Source of the DNA: an uncultured Solirubrobacterales bacterium
GTDB lineage: Bacteria; Actinomycetota; Thermoleophilia; Solirubrobacterales; 70-9
Length of the DNA stretch: 64,000 bases
Direction: 5' to 3'
Assembly: GCA_963704505.1 (NCBI GenBank)
Contig: OY969912.1
Location: 2,294,927-2,358,926, forward strand
Positions 37,188-61,354 of the stretch are shown piece after piece. Under the pieces are notes generated by a model. The model did not search any database, was not told the DNA's origin, and worked only from the letters and a program-made list of their open reading frames with translations. Each line of letters starts with the position of its first letter. The first letter of the stretch is position 1. A program made the translations under genes and the position numbers.

Positions 37188-37396
37188 TCTCGAGCAGAGC
37201 TCTATACGGGCAGGTTCTCGTGCCCGGGGCTGTACTCGGAGTAGATCGGGTGGCGCCCGAGTGCTCTTCCGAGCGGAGCTAGCACCGCAAAAAGGGCACG
37301 CTGGACGACGACCGGAGGCTTGACCAGGGCCCCCGGCCGCGACCCAAATCTAAGTTCTGCCTAAAGATCGCTCGGGTGGCTGCCGATATCCGGTTC

Positions 37397-37834
37397 ATGA
37401 AGAGCCGGATACAAAACCTTCGATCGAGCGAGGCCGGGTTCACGCTGATCGAGCTCCTCGTAGTCATGCTCATCCTCGGCATCCTTGCCGCGATCGCCCT
37501 GCCGGCGTTCTTCAACCAGAGGAACAAGGCCGGCGACGCGAAGGCCAAGGAGTACGCGCACAGCGCCCAGGTGGCGATCGAGACCTACGCCACCGAAAAC
37601 GGCGGCAGCTACAAAGAAGCCTCGCTTGAAGCGCTGCAAAAAATCGAGCCGACCTTGAACAGCGCAAAAATCACAGTGGTCAAAGGTGAACCGAAGGAAT
37701 ATGAACTCTCTTCGGAATCGACCACCGGCAACAAATTCAACATCAAAGATGTCAGCGGAACGATCACATTCCCCTGCACCACCAAGGGAACTGGTGGCTG
37801 CCCTGAAGTTGCGGGCGCAGGGAAGTGGGGCTGA
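37397..37834 (+). CDS. Type IV pilin / pseudopilin with a prepilin N-terminal cleavage-methylation motif
   Basis: MKSRIQNLRSSEAG|FTLIELLVVMLILGILAAIALPAF is a class III signal peptide (G-1, F+1, E+5). The C-terminal half is visibly lower in GC, with a Cys pair (CTTKGTGGC). Confidence 0.85.
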   Translation: MKSRIQNLRSSEAGFTLIELLVVMLILGILAAIALPAFFNQRNKAGDAKAKEYAHSAQVAIETYATENGGSYKEASLEALQKIEPTLNSAKITVVKGEPKEYELSSESTTGNKFNIKDVSGTITFPCTTKGTGGCPEVAGAGKWG

Positions 37835-37937: not shown

Positions 37938-39086
37938 ATGAATCGAACCGTGCTGATGGGAGGCGCAGCGCTGTTCACGATCGTGATCGCGATCGGGGCA
38001 TTCGTCGCCATGCCCGCGAGCGGCGCGCCGGGCGACGCGCCTGACACCGTCATCGACTCCGGGCCGAGCGGTCCGACCAACGTTTCGACTCCCTCCTTCG
38101 GCTTCCACTCGACCCAGTCCGAATCGACCTTCGAATGCTCGGTCGACACGGGGACAGCCGCATTCGGGCCCTGTGTCGAGCCGACCCCGGCCCTCGCCGA
38201 CGGCTCATACACGTTCCGCGTCCGCGCGATCAACGCCGAAGCGATCGTCGACGACACCCCGGCAACCCGGGACTTCACGGTCGACACGACCCCTCCGGAG
38301 ACGATCATCGACTCGGCGCCGAGTGGAACGACGGAAGCCTCGGAACTCATGTTCTCCTTCCACTCGAGCGAGCCCGGATCGACCTTCGAATGCTCGACCG
38401 ACACCGGCACACCCGCGTTCAAGGGATGCGTGAAGGACGGCGAAGACCTCGAAGACGGCCCCTACACCTACCGCGTGCGTGCCACCGACCGGGCCGGGAA
38501 CGTCGATCCGACACCGGCGACCAGCGCCTTCACCTTGGTCGAGCCGCCGCCGGTCTACGGGAAGACCGTCAACCTCCAGTCCGTCTCAGGGACCGTCCGG
38601 GTGAAAATCCCGGGCAGCAACAAATTCGTCGTCCTCGGCCACGAAGCGCACGTCAAAGTCGGCTCGGTGCTGGACGCCAGCGCCGGCCGCGTCCACATCG
38701 TCTCCGCCAAATCGAAACACGGCAGCCTGCAGGGCGCCGATTTCTACTCGGGCCGATTCATCGTGCTGCAGCCGGCGAAGGGCACGCCGGTGACGATCCT
38801 GAAGCTGGCCTCCGAGCTTGCCTGCGGCGACGCCCGGCGCAGTGGCGCTTCAGCTTCCCGCTCGAAGAAGAAGGGGAACGGGCTGTGGGGCAGCGGCCAC
38901 GGCAACTACAAGACGGTAGGCAGCTACGGCTCGGCAACCGTCCGGGGCACGGTCTGGTTCACCCAGGACCTCTGCGACGGGACGTTCTTCCACGTCACCC
39001 TTCACGACATCGTCGTCAAGGACTTCACGCGGCATCGCACGGTGACGGTCAAGCAGGGCTCGACCTACTTCGCGCCCGCGCCCTAG
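37938..39086 (+). CDS. Secreted/anchored protein with two tandem Ig-like-type domains and a beta-rich C-terminal domain; hypothetical
   Basis: N-terminal signal/TM (GAALFTIVIAIGAFVAMPASG), two 85-aa repeats, then a C-domain with the motifs LWGSGHGNYKTVG and VRGTVWFTQDLCDGT. Confidence 0.75.
   Translation: MNRTVLMGGAALFTIVIAIGAFVAMPASGAPGDAPDTVIDSGPSGPTNVSTPSFGFHSTQSESTFECSVDTGTAAFGPCVEPTPALADGSYTFRVRAINAEAIVDDTPATRDFTVDTTPPETIIDSAPSGTTEASELMFSFHSSEPGSTFECSTDTGTPAFKGCVKDGEDLEDGPYTYRVRATDRAGNVDPTPATSAFTLVEPPPVYGKTVNLQSVSGTVRVKIPGSNKFVVLGHEAHVKVGSVLDASAGRVHIVSAKSKHGSLQGADFYSGRFIVLQPAKGTPVTILKLASELACGDARRSGASASRSKKKGNGLWGSGHGNYKTVGSYGSATVRGTVWFTQDLCDGTFFHVTLHDIVVKDFTRHRTVTVKQGSTYFAPAP
38043..38552 (+). 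repeat. Tandem 85-aa coding repeat (x2) within the secreted protein
   Basis: Unit 1 is DTVIDSGPSG..STFECSVDTGTAAFGPCV..LADGSYTFRVRAINAE..DDTPATRDFTVDTTPP. Unit 2 is ETIIDSAPSG..STFECSTDTGTPAFKGCV..LEDGPYTYRVRATDRAGNVDPTPATSAFTLVEPPP. Confidence 0.7.
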
Positions 39087-39373
39087 TCCGTCAGGGCGTG
39101 GCGACCGCGGCCGTCGAGACGCGCGGTATGCGGAATCCGTAAAGGAACAGCTTTCTCATCGGGCAATTCTCCTGGTATCGGCAGAGGTTGAGCTCTGTGT
39201 TCACCAAGCCGGCGGCCGAGCCATCTCCGCTTTGGAGACCTCTTGCTTTGCGTCCCCGCCTCACGACGGGTTTGCCCTTGTTCAGCTGAGTACTTCTGCC
39301 CTAATCGGCACCGGCCGGCCGACCTTGATCGAACAAACGTCCAGATTCCCCGGATCTGGCCTTCTGTTGGGCG

Positions 39374-41000: not shown

Positions 41001-41798
41001 GTGATCGATACTGTGCCCGCCGTGGCCGAGAGCCAAACGAGCGGAGCGGCGAGCCCGGGAAACCGGCCCCCACGGGGCGCGGTCGCCGTGGTCATCGTCG
41101 GCCTGGTCGCGACGCTCGCCGCCGCGGCCCTGGCCAACGAAAACCTGACCGGCCCCAGCGCCCGTCTGGAATGGGTTCAGTTCAAAAGGCTTCCTGACTC
41201 CAAATCTGTCCGCGTGCCGGGCGGCGCCGGCGAGATGCAGTTGACCAAGGTCGGCCTGCGCACCACGGGGACGAACATCAGCGGCTACTCCCTCTTCCAC
41301 AGCTCCGCACAGCTGAACATCGATGCCGGATCGCCGATCGGCGGGGGGCGGATCGAATGCTCGATGCGTGCCGGGGGCGGCGCCGAAGCCGCCCAGACCC
41401 CCGGCTCGCGCGCCACCTATCCCCGCTCGAGCGAAGACCTCGCCGAACAGGAAGTCCCGACCACGGTCCTGCTCGAATTCTCATCGCACGACAACAACCT
41501 GGCGAGCGTCGAAGTCGAAGACTTCGACAAGCCGTGGGCCTCGGAGCCTGGGATCAAACTCGAATGGCCCACTTACAAGCAGGGTGAAGAGCGCTGGCAG
41601 TGGTTCCTGCCCGCCGGCAAGCCGGCCAAGGACCTCGTGCTGCCCTTCTACGTGATCTGGAAGGCGACGAAGCCGCCCGCGTTCAAGGTCTCCTGCACGG
41701 TCACCACCAGCGCCGGGACGGCGACGACCGGTAGCGGCGGGGCCCTCGCGACGATCGGCGAACCGATCGCCGAAGAAGAAGGCGAAGAAGAAGAATAG
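41001..41798 (+). CDS. Hypothetical membrane-anchored protein with a poly-Glu C-terminus
   Basis: One N-terminal TM (AVAVVIVGLVATLAAAALA), a beta-rich ectodomain and a tail ending EEEGEEEE. GTG start. I recognise no family. Confidence 0.55.
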   Translation: MIDTVPAVAESQTSGAASPGNRPPRGAVAVVIVGLVATLAAAALANENLTGPSARLEWVQFKRLPDSKSVRVPGGAGEMQLTKVGLRTTGTNISGYSLFHSSAQLNIDAGSPIGGGRIECSMRAGGGAEAAQTPGSRATYPRSSEDLAEQEVPTTVLLEFSSHDNNLASVEVEDFDKPWASEPGIKLEWPTYKQGEERWQWFLPAGKPAKDLVLPFYVIWKATKPPAFKVSCTVTTSAGTATTGSGGALATIGEPIAEEEGEEEE

Positions 41799-42606: not shown

Positions 42607-43572
42607 TCAGCTCCTCGCATCCGGGTTGTCGCGATACCACTCCAGCGTACGGCGCATGCCGTCGCGCAGATCGACCCCAGCCGTCCAGCCGGTCGCCTCG
42701 CGCAGCTTCGAGGAATCGACGAACTGGCGGTCGATCTCGCCCGCCGGGCTGCCGCTGCCCAGGTATTCGGGCTCGATCTCGCGGTCGCTGACCGCGGCGA
42801 TCGTGTCGAGCACCTCGGCGACCGAGTGCGGCCGCTCGCCGCCGGCGTTGAAGGCCTCCCCCGCCCCCGGCCCGCCGGCGCCCGTCGCCCCTTCGACCGC
42901 AAGGTAGGCGGCGACAGCGTCGTCGACGTAGAGGAAGTCGCGCTCGGGGCTGCCGTCGGAGCGGATCGCCGGGCGGCGGTCCTCGAGAACCGCCCGGATC
43001 GCCTCCGGGACCAGGCGCGAGTAGTTGAGGTCCCCTCCCCCGTAGACGTTGGCGAAGCGGGTCACGGCAACCGGCAGGCCGAAGGCCGGGCGGTAGCTGA
43101 GCGCGATCGCGTCGGCCGCCGCCTTGCTCGCCTCATAGGGAGACGCCGGGCGCAGCTGGGCGCCCTCGCGGTAGGGCAGCTCGTCCTGGGGACCGTAGGC
43201 CTTGTCGGAGGAGGCGACGACCACGGCGGGGACATCGGCGCGCCGGCAGGCCTCGAGCAGGACCCAGGTGCCGCGCACGTTGGCCTCGAAGGTCGCCGCG
43301 GGATCCTCCATCGCCGGGCCGACCAGGGTCTGCGCGGCGAGATGGAAGACCGAGTCGAACTCGCCCGCCGCCAGGGTCGCCCCGACCGCCTCGCCGTCAC
43401 GCACGTCGGCCTCGACCAGCTCGACCTCGGCCTCGATTCCCTGCAGGGAGAGCCCGGAGAGGGCGGTGCGCGGAAGATCGAGCACCGTCACCGTGTCGCC
43501 GCGACCGAGCAGGGCCCGGGCAAGGTGGGAGGCGATGAACCCGTGCCCGCCGGTGACCAGGGAGCGCTTCAC
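42607..43572 (-). CDS. NAD-dependent epimerase/dehydratase (extended SDR; NDP-sugar modifying)
   Basis: Rossmann motif VTGGHGFIASHL, catalytic YEASK, and ERDFLYVDD. The GTG start overlaps the upstream stop (GTGA). Confidence 0.88.
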   Translation of the reverse strand: MKRSLVTGGHGFIASHLARALLGRGDTVTVLDLPRTALSGLSLQGIEAEVELVEADVRDGEAVGATLAAGEFDSVFHLAAQTLVGPAMEDPAATFEANVRGTWVLLEACRRADVPAVVVASSDKAYGPQDELPYREGAQLRPASPYEASKAAADAIALSYRPAFGLPVAVTRFANVYGGGDLNYSRLVPEAIRAVLEDRRPAIRSDGSPERDFLYVDDAVAAYLAVEGATGAGGPGAGEAFNAGGERPHSVAEVLDTIAAVSDREIEPEYLGSGSPAGEIDRQFVDSSKLREATGWTAGVDLRDGMRRTLEWYRDNPDARS

Positions 43573-44318
43573 GGTGACCCGGCGGGGGACGGGGCCCAGG
43601 GATCCCAGGGTGCCTCCCCCGCGGCCCAGAGGTCGTCGAGGACGACGGCGTCCTTGTAGGTGTCCATGCAGTCCCAGAAGCCGGCGTGGCGATAGCCGCG
43701 GAGCTCGCCCGCGGCGGCGAGCCGGGCGAGCGGCTGGCGCTCGAGGACGCTCTGCTCGTCGAGGTAGTTGAAGACGCCCGGCTCGAAGCAGAAGAAGCCG
43801 CCGTTGATCCAGTGCTCGCTGCGTGGCTTCTCGACGAAGCCGTCGACCCGACCCTCCTCGTCCACCTCGGCCACCCCCCACTGCAGATGGGGCCGGACGA
43901 CGGTCATCGTCGCCAGGGCGCCCTCGTCACCGTGGAAGCCGAGCAGCCCGGCGAGGTCGACGTCGGCGACGCCGTCGGCATAGGTGGCGCAGAAGGGCTC
44001 CCCGCCGAGGCGCTCGGAGAGCTTGGCGATCCGCCCTCCGGTGGGCGTGTCGACGCCGGTGTCGACGCACTCGACCTCGATCGGCGTCGGCCAGTCCGCC
44101 TCGGCGACGAACCGCTCGACCATCTCCCCCAAATAGCCGGTCGCGAGCAGGAAGTGCTCGAACCCCTGCGCCGCATAGATCCCGATCACGTGCCAGAGGA
44201 TCGGCCGGCCGCCGATCTCGACCAGCGCCTTCGGCATCGTCTCGGTCCTCTCCCGCAGCCGCGTCCCGCGGCCCCCACAGAGGATTACGACCGGAGGCCT
44301 ACTGGCCAGGCCCGTCAA
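43569..44318 (-). CDS. rfbF: Sugar-1-phosphate nucleotidyltransferase, glucose-1-phosphate cytidylyltransferase (RfbF)-like
   Basis: VVILCGGRGTRLRERTETMPKALVEIGGRPILWHVIGIYAAQGF and WINGGFFCFEP are RfbF-like. The TTG start overlaps the MoaD-like stop (TTGA). Confidence 0.85.
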   Translation of the reverse strand: MTGLASRPPVVILCGGRGTRLRERTETMPKALVEIGGRPILWHVIGIYAAQGFEHFLLATGYLGEMVERFVAEADWPTPIEVECVDTGVDTPTGGRIAKLSERLGGEPFCATYADGVADVDLAGLLGFHGDEGALATMTVVRPHLQWGVAEVDEEGRVDGFVEKPRSEHWINGGFFCFEPGVFNYLDEQSVLERQPLARLAAAGELRGYRHAGFWDCMDTYKDAVVLDDLWAAGEAPWDPWAPSPAGSP

Positions 44319-44587
44319 CCCCCGGCGACGGCGGGCAGAATGGTCACCTCGTCGCCGTCGTTGATGTCGGTCTCGAGGCCCTGCTGGAAGCGGATGTCCT
44401 CGCCCTCGACGTAGACGTTGACGAAGCGGCGCAGGTCGCCGTCCTGGGTGATCCGCTCGCGGAGGTCGCCGTAGGTCTCGAAGACCGCGTCGAGAACCTC
44501 GCCGACGGTGCCGCCGGCGACCTCGACCTCGCCCTCGCCGCCCGTCGCGGCGCGGAGCTGGGTCGGGATCTTCACGGTGACACTCAT
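44315..44587 (-). CDS. MoaD/ThiS-family sulfur-carrier protein (C-terminal Gly-Gly)
   Basis: 90 aa with a beta-grasp-like sequence ending ...DGDEVTILPAVAGG-stop. ATGA overlap with the ThrC-like gene. Confidence 0.85.
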   Translation of the reverse strand: MSVTVKIPTQLRAATGGEGEVEVAGGTVGEVLDAVFETYGDLRERITQDGDLRRFVNVYVEGEDIRFQQGLETDINDGDEVTILPAVAGG

Positions 44588-45822
44588 CTGACCGCTACCT
44601 CCTGGGACTCGAACACGGACTGAAAGCTGTCGAGATCTGGGTCGATCTCGTGCATGTGGAATTTATCGCGGGTCGCGTCGAGGGTCTTCAGCCCCTCCCC
44701 GGTCAGGTAGACCACGACCCGTTCGCCGTCGTTCAGGTCGCCGCGTTCGGCGAGCTTGCGCAGGACGCCGACGGTCACCCCGCCGGCGGTCTCGGTGAAG
44801 ATCCCGGTGGTCTCGGCCAGCAGCCGGATCGCGTCGCGGATCTCGTCGTCGTCAACCGAGTCGATGCTCCCTTCGGTGCGGCGCGCGTGCTCGACCGCGT
44901 AGGGGCCGTCGGCAGGGTCGCCGATCGCCAGGCTTTTGGCGATCGTGTCGGGCTTCTGCGGCTTGCAGACGTCGGTGCCATCCGCGAAGGCGGTCGCGAC
45001 CGGGCTGCAGCCCTGGGCCTGGGCGCCGTTGAAGACCGGCTGGACGCCCTCGACCAGGCCGATGTCCAGCCACTCCTGGAAGCCCCGCCCCAGTTTCGTG
45101 AACAACGACCCGGAGGCGATCGGGCAGACGACGCGGTCGGGTAGCTCCCAGCCGAGCTGCTCGACGGTCTCATAGGCGAGCGTCTTCGAGCCCTCGGCGT
45201 AATACGGGCGCAGGTTGACGTTGACGAAGGCCCAGGGGTGGGTGTCGGCGAGCTGCGTGCAGAGCCGGTTGACGTCGTCGTAATTGCCCCGCACGCCGAC
45301 CAGGTTGGTGCCGTAGACGGCGGTCGCGAGCAGCTTCTGCTCCTCCAGATTGGCCGGGACGAATACGTAGGAGTCCAGGCCGGCGGCGGCCGCGTGGGCG
45401 GCGACCGCGTTGGCGAGGTTGCCGGTCGAGGCGCAGGCGACGGTGTCGTAGCCGAGCTCCTGCGCCTTGGCGACGGCGACCGCGACGACCCTGTCCTTGA
45501 ACGAGTGGGTCGGGTTTGCCGCGTCGTTCTTGATCCAGAGCTCCGCCTCGATCCCGAGCCGCTCGGCGAGCCGGTCGGCCCGCAGCAGGGGCGTCAACCC
45601 CGGCTCGAGCGGGTCGCCCGGCCGGCCCTCGAAGGGCAGGAAGTCGGCATAGCGCCAGATTCCCTGCGAGCCCGCCTGGATCCGCCGCTTGGCCTCAGCC
45701 GGTTCGAGCCCGGAATGGTCGTAGTGGACCTCGAGTGGCCCGAAGCACTTCTCACAGAAATAGTGGGCGCCGAGCTCGTAGGCGGTGCCGCACTCCTTAC
45801 ATCTCAAGCTGTCGATTGACAT
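44584..45822 (-). CDS. Threonine synthase-like PLP enzyme with an N-terminal Zn-ribbon
   Basis: CKECGTAYELGAHYFCEKC is a four-Cys ribbon. PLP-lysine motif NPTHSFKDR, plus ASTGN. The true ATG is at 45820-45822, preceded by a GGAAAGGA Shine-Dalgarno. The ORF-track start at 45981 runs through the riboswitch. Confidence 0.9.
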   Translation of the reverse strand: MSIDSLRCKECGTAYELGAHYFCEKCFGPLEVHYDHSGLEPAEAKRRIQAGSQGIWRYADFLPFEGRPGDPLEPGLTPLLRADRLAERLGIEAELWIKNDAANPTHSFKDRVVAVAVAKAQELGYDTVACASTGNLANAVAAHAAAAGLDSYVFVPANLEEQKLLATAVYGTNLVGVRGNYDDVNRLCTQLADTHPWAFVNVNLRPYYAEGSKTLAYETVEQLGWELPDRVVCPIASGSLFTKLGRGFQEWLDIGLVEGVQPVFNGAQAQGCSPVATAFADGTDVCKPQKPDTIAKSLAIGDPADGPYAVEHARRTEGSIDSVDDDEIRDAIRLLAETTGIFTETAGGVTVGVLRKLAERGDLNDGERVVVYLTGEGLKTLDATRDKFHMHEIDPDLDSFQSVFESQEVAVR

Positions 45823-45839
45823 CCGATCGAATCCTTTCC

Positions 45840-45877
45840 AAAACAGAAAAACCTCCGCCAAACTGTGGGGCAGAGGT
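45840..45877 (-). terminator. Intrinsic terminator forming the expression platform of the SAM-I riboswitch
   Basis: The minus strand reads ACCUCUGCC-CCACAGUUU-GGCGGAGGU followed by UUUUCUGUUUU. The loop and 5' arm (CCCCACA) can alternatively pair with the 3' strand of P1 (UGUGGGG), forming an anti-terminator. Confidence 0.75.
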
Positions 45878-45892
45878 CCGATCGGACATTCC

Positions 45893-46012
45893 CCACATCT
45901 TCCAGGCCCTGAACTGCTCGACCTGCTGGAGTTGGCACCTGTTCCGGACCTCTCGGTCCGACGTGGTTGCCGGGGCTTCACTGGGCCAGTCCCTCCACCC
46001 CTCTAGATGTGG
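45893..46012 (-). promoter_or_regulatory. SAM-I (S-box) riboswitch aptamer
   Basis: The minus strand reads CCACAUCUAGAGGGGUGGAGGGACUGGCCCAGUGAAGCCCCGGCAACC...CAGGUGCCAACUCCAGCAGG...CCUGGAAGAUGUGG. It matches the conserved SAM-I core (AGAG.GGUGGAGGGACUGGCCC..UGAA.CC.GGCAACC ... GGUGCCAA.UCC.GCAG ... GAAAGAUG). The P1 helix is 8 bp (CCACAUCU/AGAUGUGG). Confidence 0.9.
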
Positions 46013-46127
46013 CGCTTATGTGCAGGGGATCCTACCAGGGGCGAATTCCTTCAGTTTCGGCACCCGCCTGCGTTTAACCTAAGGCTGCCGATGCCCGACG
46101 AGACCGACACACAGATGAGCGCGAGCG

Positions 46128-47138: not shown

Positions 47139-47234
47139 GCCGACCTAGGTACTAGAAAAGTCGCGGTCGGAAAAAGGTCCCATTGCGGACCGATCTGCCC
47201 CCCACCTAATGGTTTGTGCGCCTACTGTCGCTGC

Positions 47235-47702
47235 ATGGCTCGCTCCTGGAAGAACCTCGCTGTCGTGGTCGCCTGTCTTGCGGTCCTCGCCGGCGGCACG
47301 GCTCTCGCGGTTGCAGCCAAAGGCGGCGACACGAAAGGGAACGCGGCGACCACCCAGTACACCGGTGGGACGGGCTGCTCGCACGGCTACTGGAAGAACC
47401 ACTCGAAATCTTGGCCCGCGACCGGCTACTCGCTCACCGACAACTTCGACGCGGTCTTCGGCATCACCCACTACGGGACGCTGACCCTCGACCAGGCGCT
47501 GAACCTCAACGGCGGCGGCTTCAACGCCCTGGCCCGCGAGGCGACGGCGGCACTGCTCAACTCGAAAACGTCGACGATCAACTTCAAATACTCGAACGCG
47601 CAGGTGATCAAATTGGTCCAGGACTCCGTAGCGGCGAACGATCCCGAGCCGACCAAGGATGCGCTCGAGTCCGGCAACACCTCCGGCTGCAAACTGAGCT
47701 GA
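47235..47702 (+). CDS. Hypothetical secreted protein
   Basis: Signal peptide MARSWKNLAVVVACLAVLAGGTALAVAA, a motif GCSHGYWKNHSKSW and a C-terminal Cys. I recognise no family. Confidence 0.6.
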   Translation: MARSWKNLAVVVACLAVLAGGTALAVAAKGGDTKGNAATTQYTGGTGCSHGYWKNHSKSWPATGYSLTDNFDAVFGITHYGTLTLDQALNLNGGGFNALAREATAALLNSKTSTINFKYSNAQVIKLVQDSVAANDPEPTKDALESGNTSGCKLS

Positions 47703-52429: not shown

Positions 52430-53359
52430 TTAAGCGGCGATCGCCTCTACAGCGACGCTGCTGGTCGAAGTCGGGACGGTGCAGCCCATCTTCTTGGCTT
52501 CTTCCGCCTTCTTCTTCGACGAGGCTGACTTGGTATCGGCTTCGCCTTCCTTCTTCTTCGCTTCTTCGCAAAGCTTCTTGGCTTCCACGTTCAGCGTTTT
52601 CGCTTCGGCGTTCAGTTTGTCGGCCGCTTCCCTGAGGAGTTTGGCTTCTTTCATCAGGTTTTTGTAGGAAGTCGAAGAGGTCGAGTATTTTTTGGCCGAT
52701 TTTTCCTTGCCGGCGGCCTGCGCGTCCTTGTAGTCGGCCGAGTCTTCCTTGTCGTCGGCGGCGTTTTCCTTGCTCTTCGCCAGGTTGCGCTTGCCGGAGG
52801 CGTCGGAATCGAGTGCCTTGGCTTCGTCGGACAGCTTCTTGGCTTCTTCGCCGAGCTTCTTGCCGTTGTCCGGGCACTTCGGCTGGCAGTTGTCGTCTTT
52901 GCCCGACGAGCCACCGTAGGTCGAGTAGTGATGCTCACAATCGCTGTCGCAATTGTCGTCGTGACCTGAGGAGCCACCGTAGGTGGAGTAGTGGTGCTCG
53001 CAGTCGTTGTCACAGTCGTCGTCGTAGCCGCCGCCGTAGGAGCCGCCGGTGAGGTCGAAGGAGCTGTAGTGATTCTTCGGGCATTCCGGCGGGCAGTCTT
53101 TCGAGTCGTTGCCGACGAAGACCGAGACCAGCGCGGCACCGGCGGACGTGCCGTCCGCGGCGGTGTAGTGGTGGTCAGGCGGGCACGGATCGTCCGGGTG
53201 GTACTGGTCGTAGCCACCGTTGCCTCCATCGGAGCCGCCGCCGCAGTAGACGGCCAGTGCCGTTCCACCGCCGACGAAGGCGACCAGGGCCAGCGCCACG
53301 AGGGCGATTTTGCGGAGCGCGGCGAATCCGTGACCATTCATGCCGACCACCCTAGGCAT
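52430..53359 (-). CDS. Hypothetical exported protein: Cys/His/Asp-rich repeats followed by a Lys/Glu/Ala-rich coiled-coil-like region
   Basis: N-terminal hydrophobic signal/anchor (IALVALALVAFVGGGTALA). Five D-x-C-x3-C-x-(H/N)HY-type units follow, then a low-complexity segment EEAKKLSDEAKAL...AEAKTLNVEAKKLCEEAKKKEGE with visibly lower GC. An alternative ATG lies at 53341. Confidence 0.65.
   Translation of the reverse strand: MPRVVGMNGHGFAALRKIALVALALVAFVGGGTALAVYCGGGSDGGNGGYDQYHPDDPCPPDHHYTAADGTSAGAALVSVFVGNDSKDCPPECPKNHYSSFDLTGGSYGGGYDDDCDNDCEHHYSTYGGSSGHDDNCDSDCEHHYSTYGGSSGKDDNCQPKCPDNGKKLGEEAKKLSDEAKALDSDASGKRNLAKSKENAADDKEDSADYKDAQAAGKEKSAKKYSTSSTSYKNLMKEAKLLREAADKLNAEAKTLNVEAKKLCEEAKKKEGEADTKSASSKKKAEEAKKMGCTVPTSTSSVAVEAIAA
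52901..53020 (-). repeat. 60-bp tandem coding repeat (x2) encoding DDxCDxDCEHHYSTYGGSSG
   Basis: The two units translate as DDCDNDCEHHYSTYGGSSGH and DDNCDSDCEHHYSTYGGSSG. The flanking units PCPPDHHY, DCPPECPKNHY and NCQPKCPDNG are degenerate copies. Confidence 0.8.
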
Positions 53360-57862: not shown

Positions 57863-60481
57863 ATGACTCTCGGCGCCAAACCATTTTCAAAGGCACCTCA
57901 CAGTGGCTTTCTCGCGGTAATACTGGCGATCTTCGTGGCCGGCGTCTTCTGCTCGTCTGCGGCCGCCGGCGGCGAGCCGGTGACCGTCACCAAGTACACC
58001 GATCCGTCGCAAGTGATCAAGGAGAACGCCAAGTCGAACTGGAAGCAGCCGTGGCGCTCATATATGGACACGGTGCCTGCGACGACCCTTCTCAAGGCCG
58101 TCGGGATCAACTTCAATGTCTATCCGCAGTACGCGGAGCAGACCTCGACGCTGCTCGAGCACAGTGGATTCACCCGCGCCCGGGTCGAGTTCGGCTGGAA
58201 CTCCCTGAGCTACGACAATCCGAGCCAGTTGACCGTGAGCGCAAAAACGGCGCTCGTCACGGACCTGACCGCGATGAAGGAACACGGGATCCGGCCACTG
58301 ATACTTCTCAACGCGAACAGCGGCGAACCCTGCCCGGTGAAGAAAGCGACGATCAGCCTGCTCGCGCCGGTCGAGGAAGGGGCCACCGAACTCCACATCA
58401 GTCCGAGCGACGTCGACGAGATCGTCCCGGGCAAGACGGGAATCAGAAGCGGCGGCACCTCGGCGAACTACCTCTTCTCCAGCGTCTCCCCCCAGGGGAC
58501 CGTGAAGCTCTCCGCCCCGCTCGGATCGCTCTGGCAGAACACCGCCCGAGGCGTCGTCAAGAGCCTCCCCGCCGGACCGCTCGAAATCGAAACTCTTCGA
58601 TACGAACCTTTCCACCCCGAAAAGCTGGCAAACGGGAGCCCCAACCCCGCGTTTGAGCCGACGATGCAGGGATGGCTCAACTACGTCGGCGTGATCACCC
58701 GCGAAGCCAAGGCCGTACTCGGGTCGGAAGCATTCGACGTCGAGGTCTGGAACGAGCTCAGCTTCGGTTCGCGCTTCCTCGAAGTCCGGGCCTACTACAG
58801 CCCGCCGGTCGAGGAAAACCGGTACTGGAACGAGGACGCGATCCTGGCTCGGACGATCAACTACCTCCGGGACCCCGCCCACGGCGTCGCTAACGTCGGA
58901 ATCGGCAACGGCTTCGCCAACCAGTCGCCTGGTTGGGGCCCCGAAGACTCCCCGGCCGGACTGACGGCGCAGGACAAGCATCCCTACGCCGGGTGGAGGC
59001 ACTTCCCGGCTGCCGAAAAGACCGATGGGCTCCGCCCGCTCGACGGCCAGGGTGCGGAATCCGGTACCCAGGCGAACAACTACACGGCCGGCTTCACCCC
59101 GACCTATGACTCCTTCTTCCCCGAGTATTTCCTCTCGGGGATCCTCAACCAGACACTGATCCGGGACCTGTCACCGACGCGGAATTGGTACGCCGGGTCC
59201 TGGCACGGCCGCGATGTCCCGACTCCGGGCGGCGGCGCCCTCCAGCACTGGACCACGGAGGTCAATCTGGATCCGAAAGCCGGCCCGGCAACCGGGATGA
59301 GCGCTGCGGACTCGCGCCACGTAGAGAGCAAGGAGATCCTTCGTTACCTCGTCTCCTTCGTCAACAAGGGCATGACGGCGATCGATTTCTATGCCGCTAC
59401 CGGTGGCGGCCTGGCATTGGTCGACAACGGCTTCTTCGAAGCCCTCAAGAAACACCCGTCTGCCTACCCCGGGGACGACGTGGGTGGAGAAACGATGACG
59501 GCGGTCGGCCGCCTCGCCGACGCGTTCTCCGGTGCGACAGCCGGCGTCGACAGGTCGCTGAGCCTGGATGCGCTGACGGATTTCAAGGGCAACGTCCAGT
59601 TCGAGGGCAACGGGACCGCGAAATACCCGCCCCTCTACAACCGAGACGTCTTTGCCTTCCTTCCCTTCCAGGTGACGGACAGTCGGTTCGTGATCCCGGT
59701 CTACGTCATGACCCGGAACGTCGTCAAGGAATACAAATCCGGAAGCGACCCGTCCCGCTTCGACCTACCCCCCGAACCGTACGAAATGACAATCGGCGGG
59801 ATCAACGGCGAAGGGGCCCACGTCGAAGCGTCCGATCCCCTGACCGGGGCGTCCGTCCCGGTGGAGGTCGTCTCCGGCTCCGCGAGCCAGATCGTCCTGA
59901 AAATGCCGGTGACGGACTCGCCGCGGACGCTGACGATTCAGGAAGCGGCCGGCGCCGAACCCCCAGAAGAACCGGAAGTGCCGGAAGAACCGGAAGAACC
60001 GGAACCCGAAGAACCGGAAGAAGAAAACCCCCTCGAAGAAGAAGCGGAAGAAAGTGAACTGCCTCCTCCTGGCGGAGGTAGGCCGACCGCGCCCGCGCCC
60101 ACAGTCCCGGTCGAGGTCAAGGCCTCGGCCGACGAGAACGGGCCGGGGGTCAGGTTGATTCTGCGCGGTGGCTCCGGGCTGCTCGAGAAGCACCGATTGA
60201 CCGCGATCGCCAGCTGCGATGAGTCCTGCTTCGTCCACTTCAGCGGCTACCTACAGATCGGCGGGCACACCTACAGGATGCGCGCACCGAAGCGGGGGCC
60301 CCAAGCCAGCTCGACGGGGGCAGCGGCCACGATCCAGCTGCGGATCAACTCCGGGGCGGTCAAGGCGGCGCGGGCCGCCCTCAAGCAGGACGACGAGATC
60401 GAAGCGATCGTCAGCGCCGCCGCGCGTGGCTCCACAGGCAAGCTCGCCGTGGCCAAGCGCGCCCTCGCGATCACTCGCTGA
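57863..60481 (+). CDS. Large secreted protein with a probable clan GH-A (TIM-barrel) glycoside-hydrolase-like domain, an acidic PE-repeat linker and a C-terminal beta domain
   Basis: Signal/anchor GFLAVILAIFVAGVFCSSAAAGG. The motif FDVEVWNELS is an NE(P/L)-type acid/base motif. The linker reads PPEEPEVPEEPEEPEPEEPEEENPLEEEAEE (about 59950-60060). Family assignment is tentative. Confidence 0.65.
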   Translation: MTLGAKPFSKAPHSGFLAVILAIFVAGVFCSSAAAGGEPVTVTKYTDPSQVIKENAKSNWKQPWRSYMDTVPATTLLKAVGINFNVYPQYAEQTSTLLEHSGFTRARVEFGWNSLSYDNPSQLTVSAKTALVTDLTAMKEHGIRPLILLNANSGEPCPVKKATISLLAPVEEGATELHISPSDVDEIVPGKTGIRSGGTSANYLFSSVSPQGTVKLSAPLGSLWQNTARGVVKSLPAGPLEIETLRYEPFHPEKLANGSPNPAFEPTMQGWLNYVGVITREAKAVLGSEAFDVEVWNELSFGSRFLEVRAYYSPPVEENRYWNEDAILARTINYLRDPAHGVANVGIGNGFANQSPGWGPEDSPAGLTAQDKHPYAGWRHFPAAEKTDGLRPLDGQGAESGTQANNYTAGFTPTYDSFFPEYFLSGILNQTLIRDLSPTRNWYAGSWHGRDVPTPGGGALQHWTTEVNLDPKAGPATGMSAADSRHVESKEILRYLVSFVNKGMTAIDFYAATGGGLALVDNGFFEALKKHPSAYPGDDVGGETMTAVGRLADAFSGATAGVDRSLSLDALTDFKGNVQFEGNGTAKYPPLYNRDVFAFLPFQVTDSRFVIPVYVMTRNVVKEYKSGSDPSRFDLPPEPYEMTIGGINGEGAHVEASDPLTGASVPVEVVSGSASQIVLKMPVTDSPRTLTIQEAAGAEPPEEPEVPEEPEEPEPEEPEEENPLEEEAEESELPPPGGGRPTAPAPTVPVEVKASADENGPGVRLILRGGSGLLEKHRLTAIASCDESCFVHFSGYLQIGGHTYRMRAPKRGPQASSTGAAATIQLRINSGAVKAARAALKQDDEIEAIVSAAARGSTGKLAVAKRALAITR

Positions 60482-60541: not shown

Positions 60542-61354
60542 ATGGACTCCGACGGCAGACGGATCTATCACTTCCACGTGCGCAAGACCGCCGGCTCCAG
60601 CCTGAACGCGTCTTTCTGGCGGCTCGGCGGCCCGGAGGTCGAGGCAACGATGACGCAGGGCGACACATCGGCCGAAGGCAACGGGCTGAGGTTCACCGAC
60701 GAGCTCGAGCCGATGGCGGCCGGCAACTTCTTCTTCGCAAGCTCGCACCGCCCCTACGGCGAGGTGCGACTGCCGCCCGGGACCTTCAAGCTGACGATTC
60801 TTCGCGACCCGATCGCCCGCGTGAAGTCCTACTACCGCTACGTCCAGTGGGTCTGCACCGATCCCGATTCGCACATTTACGAACCCTTCGCCGACCGAGT
60901 CAAGCGGGAGAGTTGGTTCCTCGACGGGGGAGTCCACTACCTGCGGACACAACTCTCGCCGAGGCGCCTGCGAACCGAAGGTGAGATCAGGAACCTCGGC
61001 CCGGGACAGCTTGCGAGGAGGCTGACCCGCCTCAGGCACCGAGGGGCCTTCTCGGACCTGGTCCAGAGGCTCCCTCCGAGGCGCCTCTCGGCGCAGCTCT
61101 ACATGTTCTCGGAGAGCCTCGACCCGGTCGAGGCCTCAAATCGAATCCTCGATTGCGACGCGGTTCTCTTCACCGAAACCTTCCCAGCGGACCTGGCGAA
61201 GGTCGCCGACCGCCTAGACCTCAAGCTCGACGAGCGCCACGAGCGTCGCTTCGGCGATCCGGTCGAGCCGACCGAGCGTGACCTAATGACACTCCGCAAG
61301 CGCCTTTCTCGCGAGTACGAGATGATCGAAAGAGTCCGCGATCGGCTGGCTTGA
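60542..61354 (+). CDS. Sulfotransferase family protein (Sulfotransfer_2/3-like)
   Basis: 5'-PSB-like motif YHFHVRKTAGSSL and 3'-PB-like motif ILRDPIARVKSYYRY. Confidence 0.72.
   Translation: MDSDGRRIYHFHVRKTAGSSLNASFWRLGGPEVEATMTQGDTSAEGNGLRFTDELEPMAAGNFFFASSHRPYGEVRLPPGTFKLTILRDPIARVKSYYRYVQWVCTDPDSHIYEPFADRVKRESWFLDGGVHYLRTQLSPRRLRTEGEIRNLGPGQLARRLTRLRHRGAFSDLVQRLPPRRLSAQLYMFSESLDPVEASNRILDCDAVLFTETFPADLAKVADRLDLKLDERHERRFGDPVEPTERDLMTLRKRLSREYEMIERVRDRLA

Follow-up and report, generated by a model that had tools for sequence, protein, structure and literature searches.

A SAM-I riboswitch, a threonine synthase-like enzyme and a CysO-like carrier form a probable MetM/MetO locus in a Solirubrobacterales bacterium

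In a 64,000-nucleotide stretch of DNA from an uncultured Solirubrobacterales bacterium (assembly GCA_963704505.1, contig OY969912.1, positions 2,294,927 to 2,358,926; 68% G+C; hereafter the window), we identified a minus-strand locus in which an S-adenosylmethionine (SAM)-I riboswitch and a transcription terminator are followed by a gene for a threonine synthase (ThrC)-family pyridoxal 5'-phosphate (PLP) enzyme and then by a gene for a CysO-like sulfur carrier. Judged by its sequence, the locus is probably the Solirubrobacterales orthologue of the MetM/MetO route to homocysteine, a reading to which we assign a probability of about 85%. We establish the anatomy of the locus, the conservation of its enzyme, carrier and riboswitch as a unit, and the separation of its enzyme from housekeeping ThrC. 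The system is not new in kind, having been described in 2024 and already entered in GapMind; what is new here is its occurrence in Solirubrobacterales.

A preliminary description of this DNA, made from its letters alone, had proposed that the pair makes a methionine precursor rather than threonine. Our analysis supports this proposal, since every testable sequence-level hallmark of such a role is present. The preliminary description had also mentioned a report of MetM and MetO in Streptomyces. Such a report exists, that of Hasebe and colleagues on Streptomyces albulus (2024; Appl Environ Microbiol 90:e01247-24); our account of it follows the papers that cite it. As those citing papers summarize it, MetM is a MetO-thiocarboxylate-dependent homocysteine synthase that acts on O-phospho-homoserine, requires Mec and MoeZ, and is "often misannotated" as threonine synthase. 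PMC12172450 adds that S. albulus metM has an upstream SAM riboswitch. The window locus shares with the S. albulus system a ThrC-homologous PLP enzyme, an adjoining small carrier, an upstream SAM riboswitch and the "threonine synthase" annotation.

Anatomy of the riboswitch, enzyme and carrier

The features of the locus, all on the minus strand, are as follows.

45892-46013, minus strand: SAM-I (S-box) riboswitch aptamer (Rfam RF00162)
45840-45876, minus strand: expression platform, terminator hairpin and U-run (sequence reading and folding)
45832-45839, minus strand: Shine-Dalgarno-like GGAAAGGA, 9 nt 5' of the ATG (sequence reading; putative role)
44584-45822, minus strand: MetM-like ThrC-family PLP enzyme, 412 amino acids (PALP, TIGR00260 and PDB matches)
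45745-45801, minus strand: four-Cys ribbon, enzyme residues 8-26 (translation)
45496-45498, minus strand: codon of the PLP lysine K109 (motif THSFKDRV)
44315-44587, minus strand: MetO-like sulfur carrier, 90 amino acids (ThiS family, CysO structures)

The enzyme gene runs from an ATG at 45822 to a stop codon at 44584-44586. A mechanical open reading frame (ORF) call begins at GTG 45981; because this codon sits inside the riboswitch and alignments with homologues begin at the first residue of the ATG-initiated protein, we took ATG 45822 as the start. The product had been read in the preliminary description as a 412-residue protein of the ThrC fold with its PLP lysine in HSFKDR. This reading is borne out by a match to the Pfam PALP family (E = 3.3e-73), which identifies a fold-type II PLP enzyme, and by the position of K109 in THSFKDRV. 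The best solved relatives are threonine synthases, with E-values down to 9.5e-59 and alignments from residue 55 on (PDB entries compared: 6cgq, 2zsj, 1uim and 2d1f). The protein scored far below the cutoffs of other PLP enzyme families: 42.7 bits against 344 (TIGR01136) and 42.2 against 413 (PRK11761) for the CysK/CysM subfamily, and 75.1 against 324.9 (TIGR03844) for cysteate synthase.

The first 54 residues contain a CxxC...CxxC motif (C8, C11, C23 and C26), and these four cysteines, together with K109, are invariant in 20 diverse homologues. This four-Cys zinc ribbon had been called an extra element of the enzyme, a claim that holds in part. Compared with solved ThrC structures from bacteria and plants, whose alignments begin only at residue 55-74, the motif is indeed additional. 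It is not, however, unique to the carrier-linked clade described below: haloarchaeal thrC genes align from residue 3, and the proteins P0229, P0249 and P0265 have the four cysteines yet are placed by the tree on the side of canonical ThrC.

The stop codon of the enzyme gene and the start codon of the carrier gene overlap by 4 nt as ATGA at 44584-44587 (...GTC AGA TGA / ATG AGT GTC). Translational coupling of this form, to a 90-residue beta-grasp protein ending in Gly-Gly, had been pointed out beforehand, and both the reading of the sequence and a match to the Pfam ThiS family (E = 2.7e-16) agree with it. The carrier ends in ...PAVAGG. Its closest solved relatives are the CysO proteins of Amycolatopsis (4n6e_B, 1.3e-25) and Mycobacterium tuberculosis (3dwg_C, 7.2e-23).

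Upstream of the enzyme gene, the aptamer matches RF00162 over the full model (positions 1-108) with 79.5 bits, compared with a gathering score of 44.4 (E = 4.7e-17). The preliminary description was thus right to place a SAM-I riboswitch before both genes, but the element lies outside the span (44315-45822) in which it had been reported. The terminator is an 8-bp hairpin formed by CCUCUGCC (45869-45876) and GGCGGAGG (45852-45859) around a 9-nt loop, with a U-run, UUUUUCUGUUUU (45840-45851), directly 3' of it. We found this hairpin in the minimum free energy fold of the single sequence and again when 17 related leaders were folded to a consensus. Hairpin and U-run are conserved among the window's close relatives, and the stem pairs are preserved through changes on both sides at three positions. 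A simple consensus terminator scan of the minus strand returned nothing, because the 9-nt loop exceeds the limit of the scan. The 3' strand of helix P1, UGUGGGG (45891-45897), is complementary to CCCCACA (45864-45870), which covers the 5' side and part of the loop of the hairpin. From this complementarity we infer an antiterminator, and with it the classic S-box alternative between terminator and antiterminator.

The folds also contain an outer helix (45820-45887, minus strand) that encloses the terminator hairpin; in it GUCCGAUC, just after the aptamer, pairs with GAUCGGAU, whose last nucleotide is the A of the AUG. It appears in the single-sequence and consensus folds and in 15 of the 17 close leaders, with almost no covariation. 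This predicted helix is unproven and may add translational control.

Conservation of the unit and separation from housekeeping ThrC

For comparison we took the best 80 loci from a scan of one genome per species. These loci come first from Solirubrobacterales, at 65-92% identity, and then from Miltoncostaeaceae, Acidimicrobiia, other Actinomycetes, one Verrucomicrobiia metagenome-assembled genome (MAG) and many cyanobacteria, at 54-59%; none of the 80 is from Streptomyces. A carrier homologue lies directly 3' of the enzyme gene in 74 of them, and three of the six loci without an adjoining carrier are contig ends. Clustering of all ORFs in these loci showed that no gene other than those of the enzyme and the carrier is kept across all lineages. 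The other conserved neighbours were lineage-specific housekeeping genes (CorA, GroEL, glycerate kinase, DUF2996). Outside the best 80, Nonomuraea gerenzanensis (NZ_LT559118.1; L081/L085) has the order SAM riboswitch, MetM-like gene (53% identical to the window protein), MetO-like gene, groEL. A homologue search seeded with the Nonomuraea protein, saturated by close relatives, gave only Streptosporangiales matches, and the Streptomyces matches among plasmid records were all canonical ThrCs, none of them of the MetM type. NZ_LT559118.1 is filed in PLSDB as "plasmid I"; it is 11.85 Mb long, carries groEL, thrC and the metM-like operon, and has 10 annotated features. It is evidently a chromosome filed as a plasmid.

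The carriers of the related loci end almost uniformly. An exact Gly-Gly terminus is present in 69 of 73 complete carriers, and nearly all of these read PAVAGG; the remaining four extend past Gly-Gly by one or two residues (GGC twice, GGR and GGSR). The extended forms are GGC in L001 (11233-11505) and L004 (7980-8252), GGR in L015 and GGSR in L076. For their Gly-Gly to become terminal, these carriers would first have to lose the extra residues, which agrees with GapMind's step "[MetO]-L-cysteine hydrolase Mec". We also observed a second ThiS-family ORF of ~89 codons, ~1.1 kb upstream of the MetM-like gene, in eight cyanobacterial loci that have the downstream carrier as well (L039, L054, L064, L066, L069, L071, L072 and L075). 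The upstream copy in L069 has no Gly-Gly directly at its Pfam-aligned end.

These data bear on whether the carrier is needed at all. If the enzyme made homocysteine from O-phosphohomoserine with free sulfide, the carrier would be dispensable or would serve another pathway. Three loci have the enzyme gene and no carrier gene in the available downstream flank (L016, a Solirubrobacterales MAG; L060, a Pseudanabaena MAG; and L073, the Verrucomicrobiia MAG), and no locus has a linked activase; both observations speak for free sulfide. Set against this are the 4-nt gene overlap in the window, the adjacency of the two genes in 74 of the 80 loci, the almost invariant PAVAGG terminus and the published pathway, which, as the citing papers describe it, uses the MetO thiocarboxylate with MoeZ and Mec. 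We therefore consider a free-sulfide reaction very unlikely. The carrier-less L073 still has an upstream SAM-I core motif.

The riboswitch is conserved along with the pair. Of the 49 non-cyanobacterial loci with sequence available 5' of the enzyme gene, 48 have a SAM-I element there by core motif or Rfam match. A pattern search found no SAM-I core motif in 30 cyanobacterial-type loci, one of which (L048) was also negative with Rfam. This absence matches what PMC12172450 says of Microcystis. Across the leaders that we compared for platform type (L018, L024, L027-L031; L045, L076, L080), the SAM-I aptamer is joined to differing expression platforms by lineage. In the window's clade a terminator lies far from the ATG, Conexibacter-like leaders have a GGAGG-containing hairpin and U-run abutting the ATG, and in Actinomycetes and Acidimicrobiia the 3' strand of P1 lies beside the ribosome-binding site.

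The preliminary description had suggested a phylogeny of the enzyme against canonical ThrC. We built a neighbour-joining tree from distances computed in numpy, with 200 bootstraps. Canonical ThrCs formed a clade with 99-100% bootstrap support that excludes the window protein, which falls instead among the carrier-linked proteins. Firm clustering with canonical ThrC, named beforehand as an outcome that would count against the proposal, was not observed. The canonical clade comprises ThrCs of Nonomuraea, Streptomyces and Brevibacillus (the last from a hom-thrC-thrB operon) and the Nostoc paralogues. Across phyla, carrier-linked proteins are 53-70% identical to one another, and canonical ThrCs are 52-77% identical among themselves, compared with 32-40% between the two groups. 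The corresponding values for the window protein are 53-59% within the MetM-like group across phyla and 35-39% to canonical ThrC. Nonomuraea has both paralogues, its canonical ThrC being 77% identical to Streptomyces ThrC, and both are likewise present in two Nostoc loci (L042 and L043).

We then compared individual residues between 77 carrier-linked proteins and nine canonical ThrCs, five of which are encoded next to hom and/or thrB. The groups share 72 conserved positions, including N-P-T-x-S-F-K-D-R and S-T-G-N, and are fixed for different residues at 23 positions. The differences (carrier-linked versus canonical) include FKDR-VV versus FKDR-GM, STGN-LA versus STGN-TS, R205/Y208 versus N/R, ASGS versus GNAGN, GAQAxGC versus GFQAAGA, and ETAGG versus EPASA. 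An insertion of ~8 residues near positions 279-286 further marks the carrier-linked group. To judge by the Thermus ThrC structures, several of the clade-specific positions may line the site for the substrate or product phosphate, which ThrC uses to direct the addition of water. If so, the residue changes would suit an enzyme that has gone from adding water at the beta position to gamma-replacement with sulfur.

The window enzyme thus resembles canonical ThrC in its fold, its SFKDR lysine motif, the 72 common conserved positions and its presumed substrate, O-phosphohomoserine. It differs in overall identity, in the 23 fixed positions, in the insertion and, relative to solved structures, in the N-terminal ribbon. 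The genomic contexts differ as well: a carrier gene and a SAM riboswitch accompany the window enzyme, whereas canonical ThrC is found with hom and thrB.

Three points weigh against assigning the locus to the MetM/MetO route. First, the best family match of the enzyme is the NCBIfam equivalog model for thrC, TIGR00260, and its score of 281.5 bits exceeds the curated cutoff of 167.1. Second, a Microcystis homologue that shares 51.6% identity with MetM, has a metO-like gene beside it and is described as having no riboswitch reportedly acted in vitro mainly as a threonine synthase and deaminase, giving no clear homocysteine from sulfide; according to PMC12172450, which also reports that MetM homologues are spread among cyanobacteria, this "ThrC" was not a clear MetM in vitro or in vivo. 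Third, orthology to S. albulus MetM would rest on architecture, regulation and transitive identity values. With respect to the last, the 53-59% and 35-39% identities of the window protein parallel the published values of 51.6% between the Microcystis homologue and MetM and of 33% between Bacillus subtilis ThrC and MetM (the latter from a 2026 preprint). With respect to the first, TIGR00260 does not separate the MetM clade from ThrC. The behaviour of the Microcystis protein indicates that function may not be uniform across the clade and may differ in the riboswitch-less cyanobacteria.

The first two of these points would also favour an ordinary threonine synthase that carries a zinc ribbon and happens to lie beside an unrelated MoaD/ThiS carrier, as would the database names of the homologues, all "threonine synthase", and the fact that the best solved relatives are ThrCs. 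Such an enzyme would not explain why SAM-riboswitch control is kept across Actinomycetota, why carrier linkage is near-universal or why a MetM-like protein co-occurs with a canonical ThrC in Nonomuraea and Nostoc. The separate clade with its 23 fixed differences, which include the FKDRGM, STGNTS and GNAGN motifs, also argues against it. In Pfam scans of 70 ORFs across the whole window, moreover, we found no hom or thrB. An ordinary threonine synthase is, in our judgement, extremely unlikely.

A proposed carrier-dependent route to homocysteine

By the assignment to MetM/MetO, an E1-like (MoeZ-type) enzyme encoded elsewhere would adenylate and thiocarboxylate the Gly-Gly terminus of the carrier. 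The ThrC-family PLP enzyme would eliminate phosphate from O-phospho-L-homoserine, and the sulfur of the carrier thiocarboxylate would then be added at C-gamma, in place of the addition of water at C-beta that yields threonine. Homocysteine would be released, probably with the aid of a Mec-type hydrolase, and methylated to methionine. When SAM is plentiful, its binding to the aptamer would stabilize P1, and transcription would end at the hairpin and U-run, ahead of the ATG. Under SAM scarcity, the 3' strand of P1 would pair with the 5' side of the hairpin, and the operon would be read through. In this scheme the identity of the substrate and of the sulfur donor, and the participation of MoeZ and Mec in trans, are inferred from published work and from the CysM/CysO analogy.

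The supply of the activating enzyme in trans follows from the gene content. The preliminary description had found no E1-like activase or JAMM protease in the window, and the Pfam scans of the 70 ORFs are consistent with this, detecting no ThiF/E1-like or JAMM genes. Clustering of ORFs revealed no linked activase or hydrolase in any fetched locus either. A tblastn search with E. coli MoeB and M. tuberculosis Mec sequences matched nothing in the window or the loci, a weak negative since it had no positive control. As neither an E1 nor a JAMM protein is encoded in the window or in the fetched loci, activation would be supplied in trans. The same holds for S. albulus, where the activase MoeZ and the hydrolase Mec are encoded elsewhere.

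The 2026 version of GapMind lists MetM/MetO as the "thiocarboxylate pathway", with a "[MetO]-L-cysteine hydrolase" among its steps. The host of the window locus belongs to Thermoleophilia and Solirubrobacterales, unlike S. albulus, a member of Actinomycetes. Set beside the S. albulus system, the window locus has a riboswitch of the terminator type and sugar-nucleotide genes that follow directly. Its carrier ends exactly at Gly-Gly; those of two close relatives end in GGC.

M. tuberculosis makes cysteine by comparable means: CysM, CysO, Mec and MoeZ combine a phosphorylated amino-acid substrate, a protein thiocarboxylate and a PLP enzyme. The window carrier is clearly CysO-like (3dwg, 7.2e-23), and the pathway logic would be the same. 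Unlike in CysM/CysO, the PLP enzyme is of the ThrC subfamily, the expected substrate is O-phosphohomoserine and the expected product homocysteine, and the locus is SAM-regulated. A carrier of the ThiS/MoaD type is also said to provide, as a thiocarboxylate, the sulfur of homocysteine in Wolinella succinogenes (HcyS/HcyD/HcyF/MetY, attributed to Krishnamoorthy and Begley). That route reportedly uses an O-acetylhomoserine sulfhydrylase of the MetY type (fold-type I) with a linked activase and protease, whereas the window enzyme is of the ThrC type (fold-type II) and has no linked activase.

Downstream sugar genes, surroundings and significance

Two further genes follow the carrier gene on the same strand.

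43569-44318, minus strand: glucose-1-phosphate cytidylyltransferase-like gene (Pfam; NCBIfam matches below cutoff)
42607-44318, minus strand: the cytidylyltransferase-like gene together with a nucleoside diphosphate (NDP)-sugar 4,6-dehydratase/epimerase-like gene, possibly co-transcribed; membership in the operon uncertain

The only plausible start of the cytidylyltransferase-like gene is a TTG at 44318, which overlaps the carrier stop codon (TTGA). The order metM-metO-transferase-dehydratase occurs in 20 loci, all from Solirubrobacterales (listed among L001-L021, L050 and L055), with gaps of -20 to +123 nt. The terminator scan gave no terminator-like site separating the carrier gene from the sugar genes. 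The SAM-riboswitch transcript may run on into the cytidylyltransferase- and dehydratase-like genes, and the carrier could, speculatively, act as a dual sulfur donor, as CysO does for BexX; we regard this arrangement as unlikely. If it were true, SAM and methionine status would also gate a nucleotide-sugar pathway and, more speculatively still, the carrier would donate sulfur both for homocysteine and for a sugar-derived product.

The sugar genes also raise the question of whether the PLP enzyme makes a different sulfur compound altogether with the carrier: cysteine from O-phosphoserine, cysteate, or a thio-sugar or other thio-metabolite tied to the downstream genes, which are of the type that would act on cytidine diphosphate sugars. 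Such a product would suit both the carrier, which among solved structures is closest to CysO proteins, including one crystallized with the thiosugar synthase BexX, and the sugar-nucleotide genes that abut it. The enzyme, however, is neither a CysK/CysM (42.7 versus 344 bits) nor a cysteate synthase (75 versus 325), and the SAM riboswitch points to methionine. The sugar genes, moreover, accompany the pair only within Solirubrobacterales (the 20 loci above), whereas the pair itself spans phyla, and Pfam scans of the window found no ThiG/BexX-like gene. We judge a different product quite unlikely, and homocysteine remains the product that we favour.

By its Pfam content, the window is a core chromosomal region. 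It contains recA, ftsK, RNase J, dapA/dapB, pnp, rpsO, ribF, truB, infB, nusA, coaBC, gmk, a pyrimidine operon, CorA, a HIT protein, phosphomannomutase and cell-envelope genes; metX and metY were not found in it. At 39208-39286 on the minus strand we found a c-di-GMP-I riboswitch (53.4 bits) with no convincing same-strand ORF downstream. It points into the 3' end of a gene for a 382-residue secreted protein with repeated immunoglobulin-like motifs (37938-39086, plus strand), itself preceded by a gene whose type IV pilin-like product has an N-terminal methylation motif (37376-37834, plus strand). The riboswitch may be an orphan or antisense element; alternatively, a short ORF may have escaped detection. 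Five sizeable ORFs have coding-like G+C content at third codon positions and no Pfam family: 41001-41798, 47214-47702, 57863-60481 and 60542-61354 on the plus strand and 52430-53359 on the minus strand. One of these Pfam-less ORFs has 872 codons, and the ORFs at 41001-41798 and 47214-47702 are also without an NCBIfam family.

MetM/MetO has so far been documented experimentally in one Streptomyces strain. Our data suggest that enzyme, carrier and SAM riboswitch form a module conserved across Actinomycetota, and that the pair of enzyme and carrier reaches cyanobacteria. Annotation pipelines and family models still call the enzyme "threonine synthase", which gives the assignment value for re-annotation. 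The 23 clade-specific positions provide a practical signature for telling MetM from ThrC, and an entry to the question of how a ThrC scaffold comes to perform gamma-replacement. For Solirubrobacterales, an abundant soil order, the locus probably fills the homocysteine step in metabolic reconstruction.

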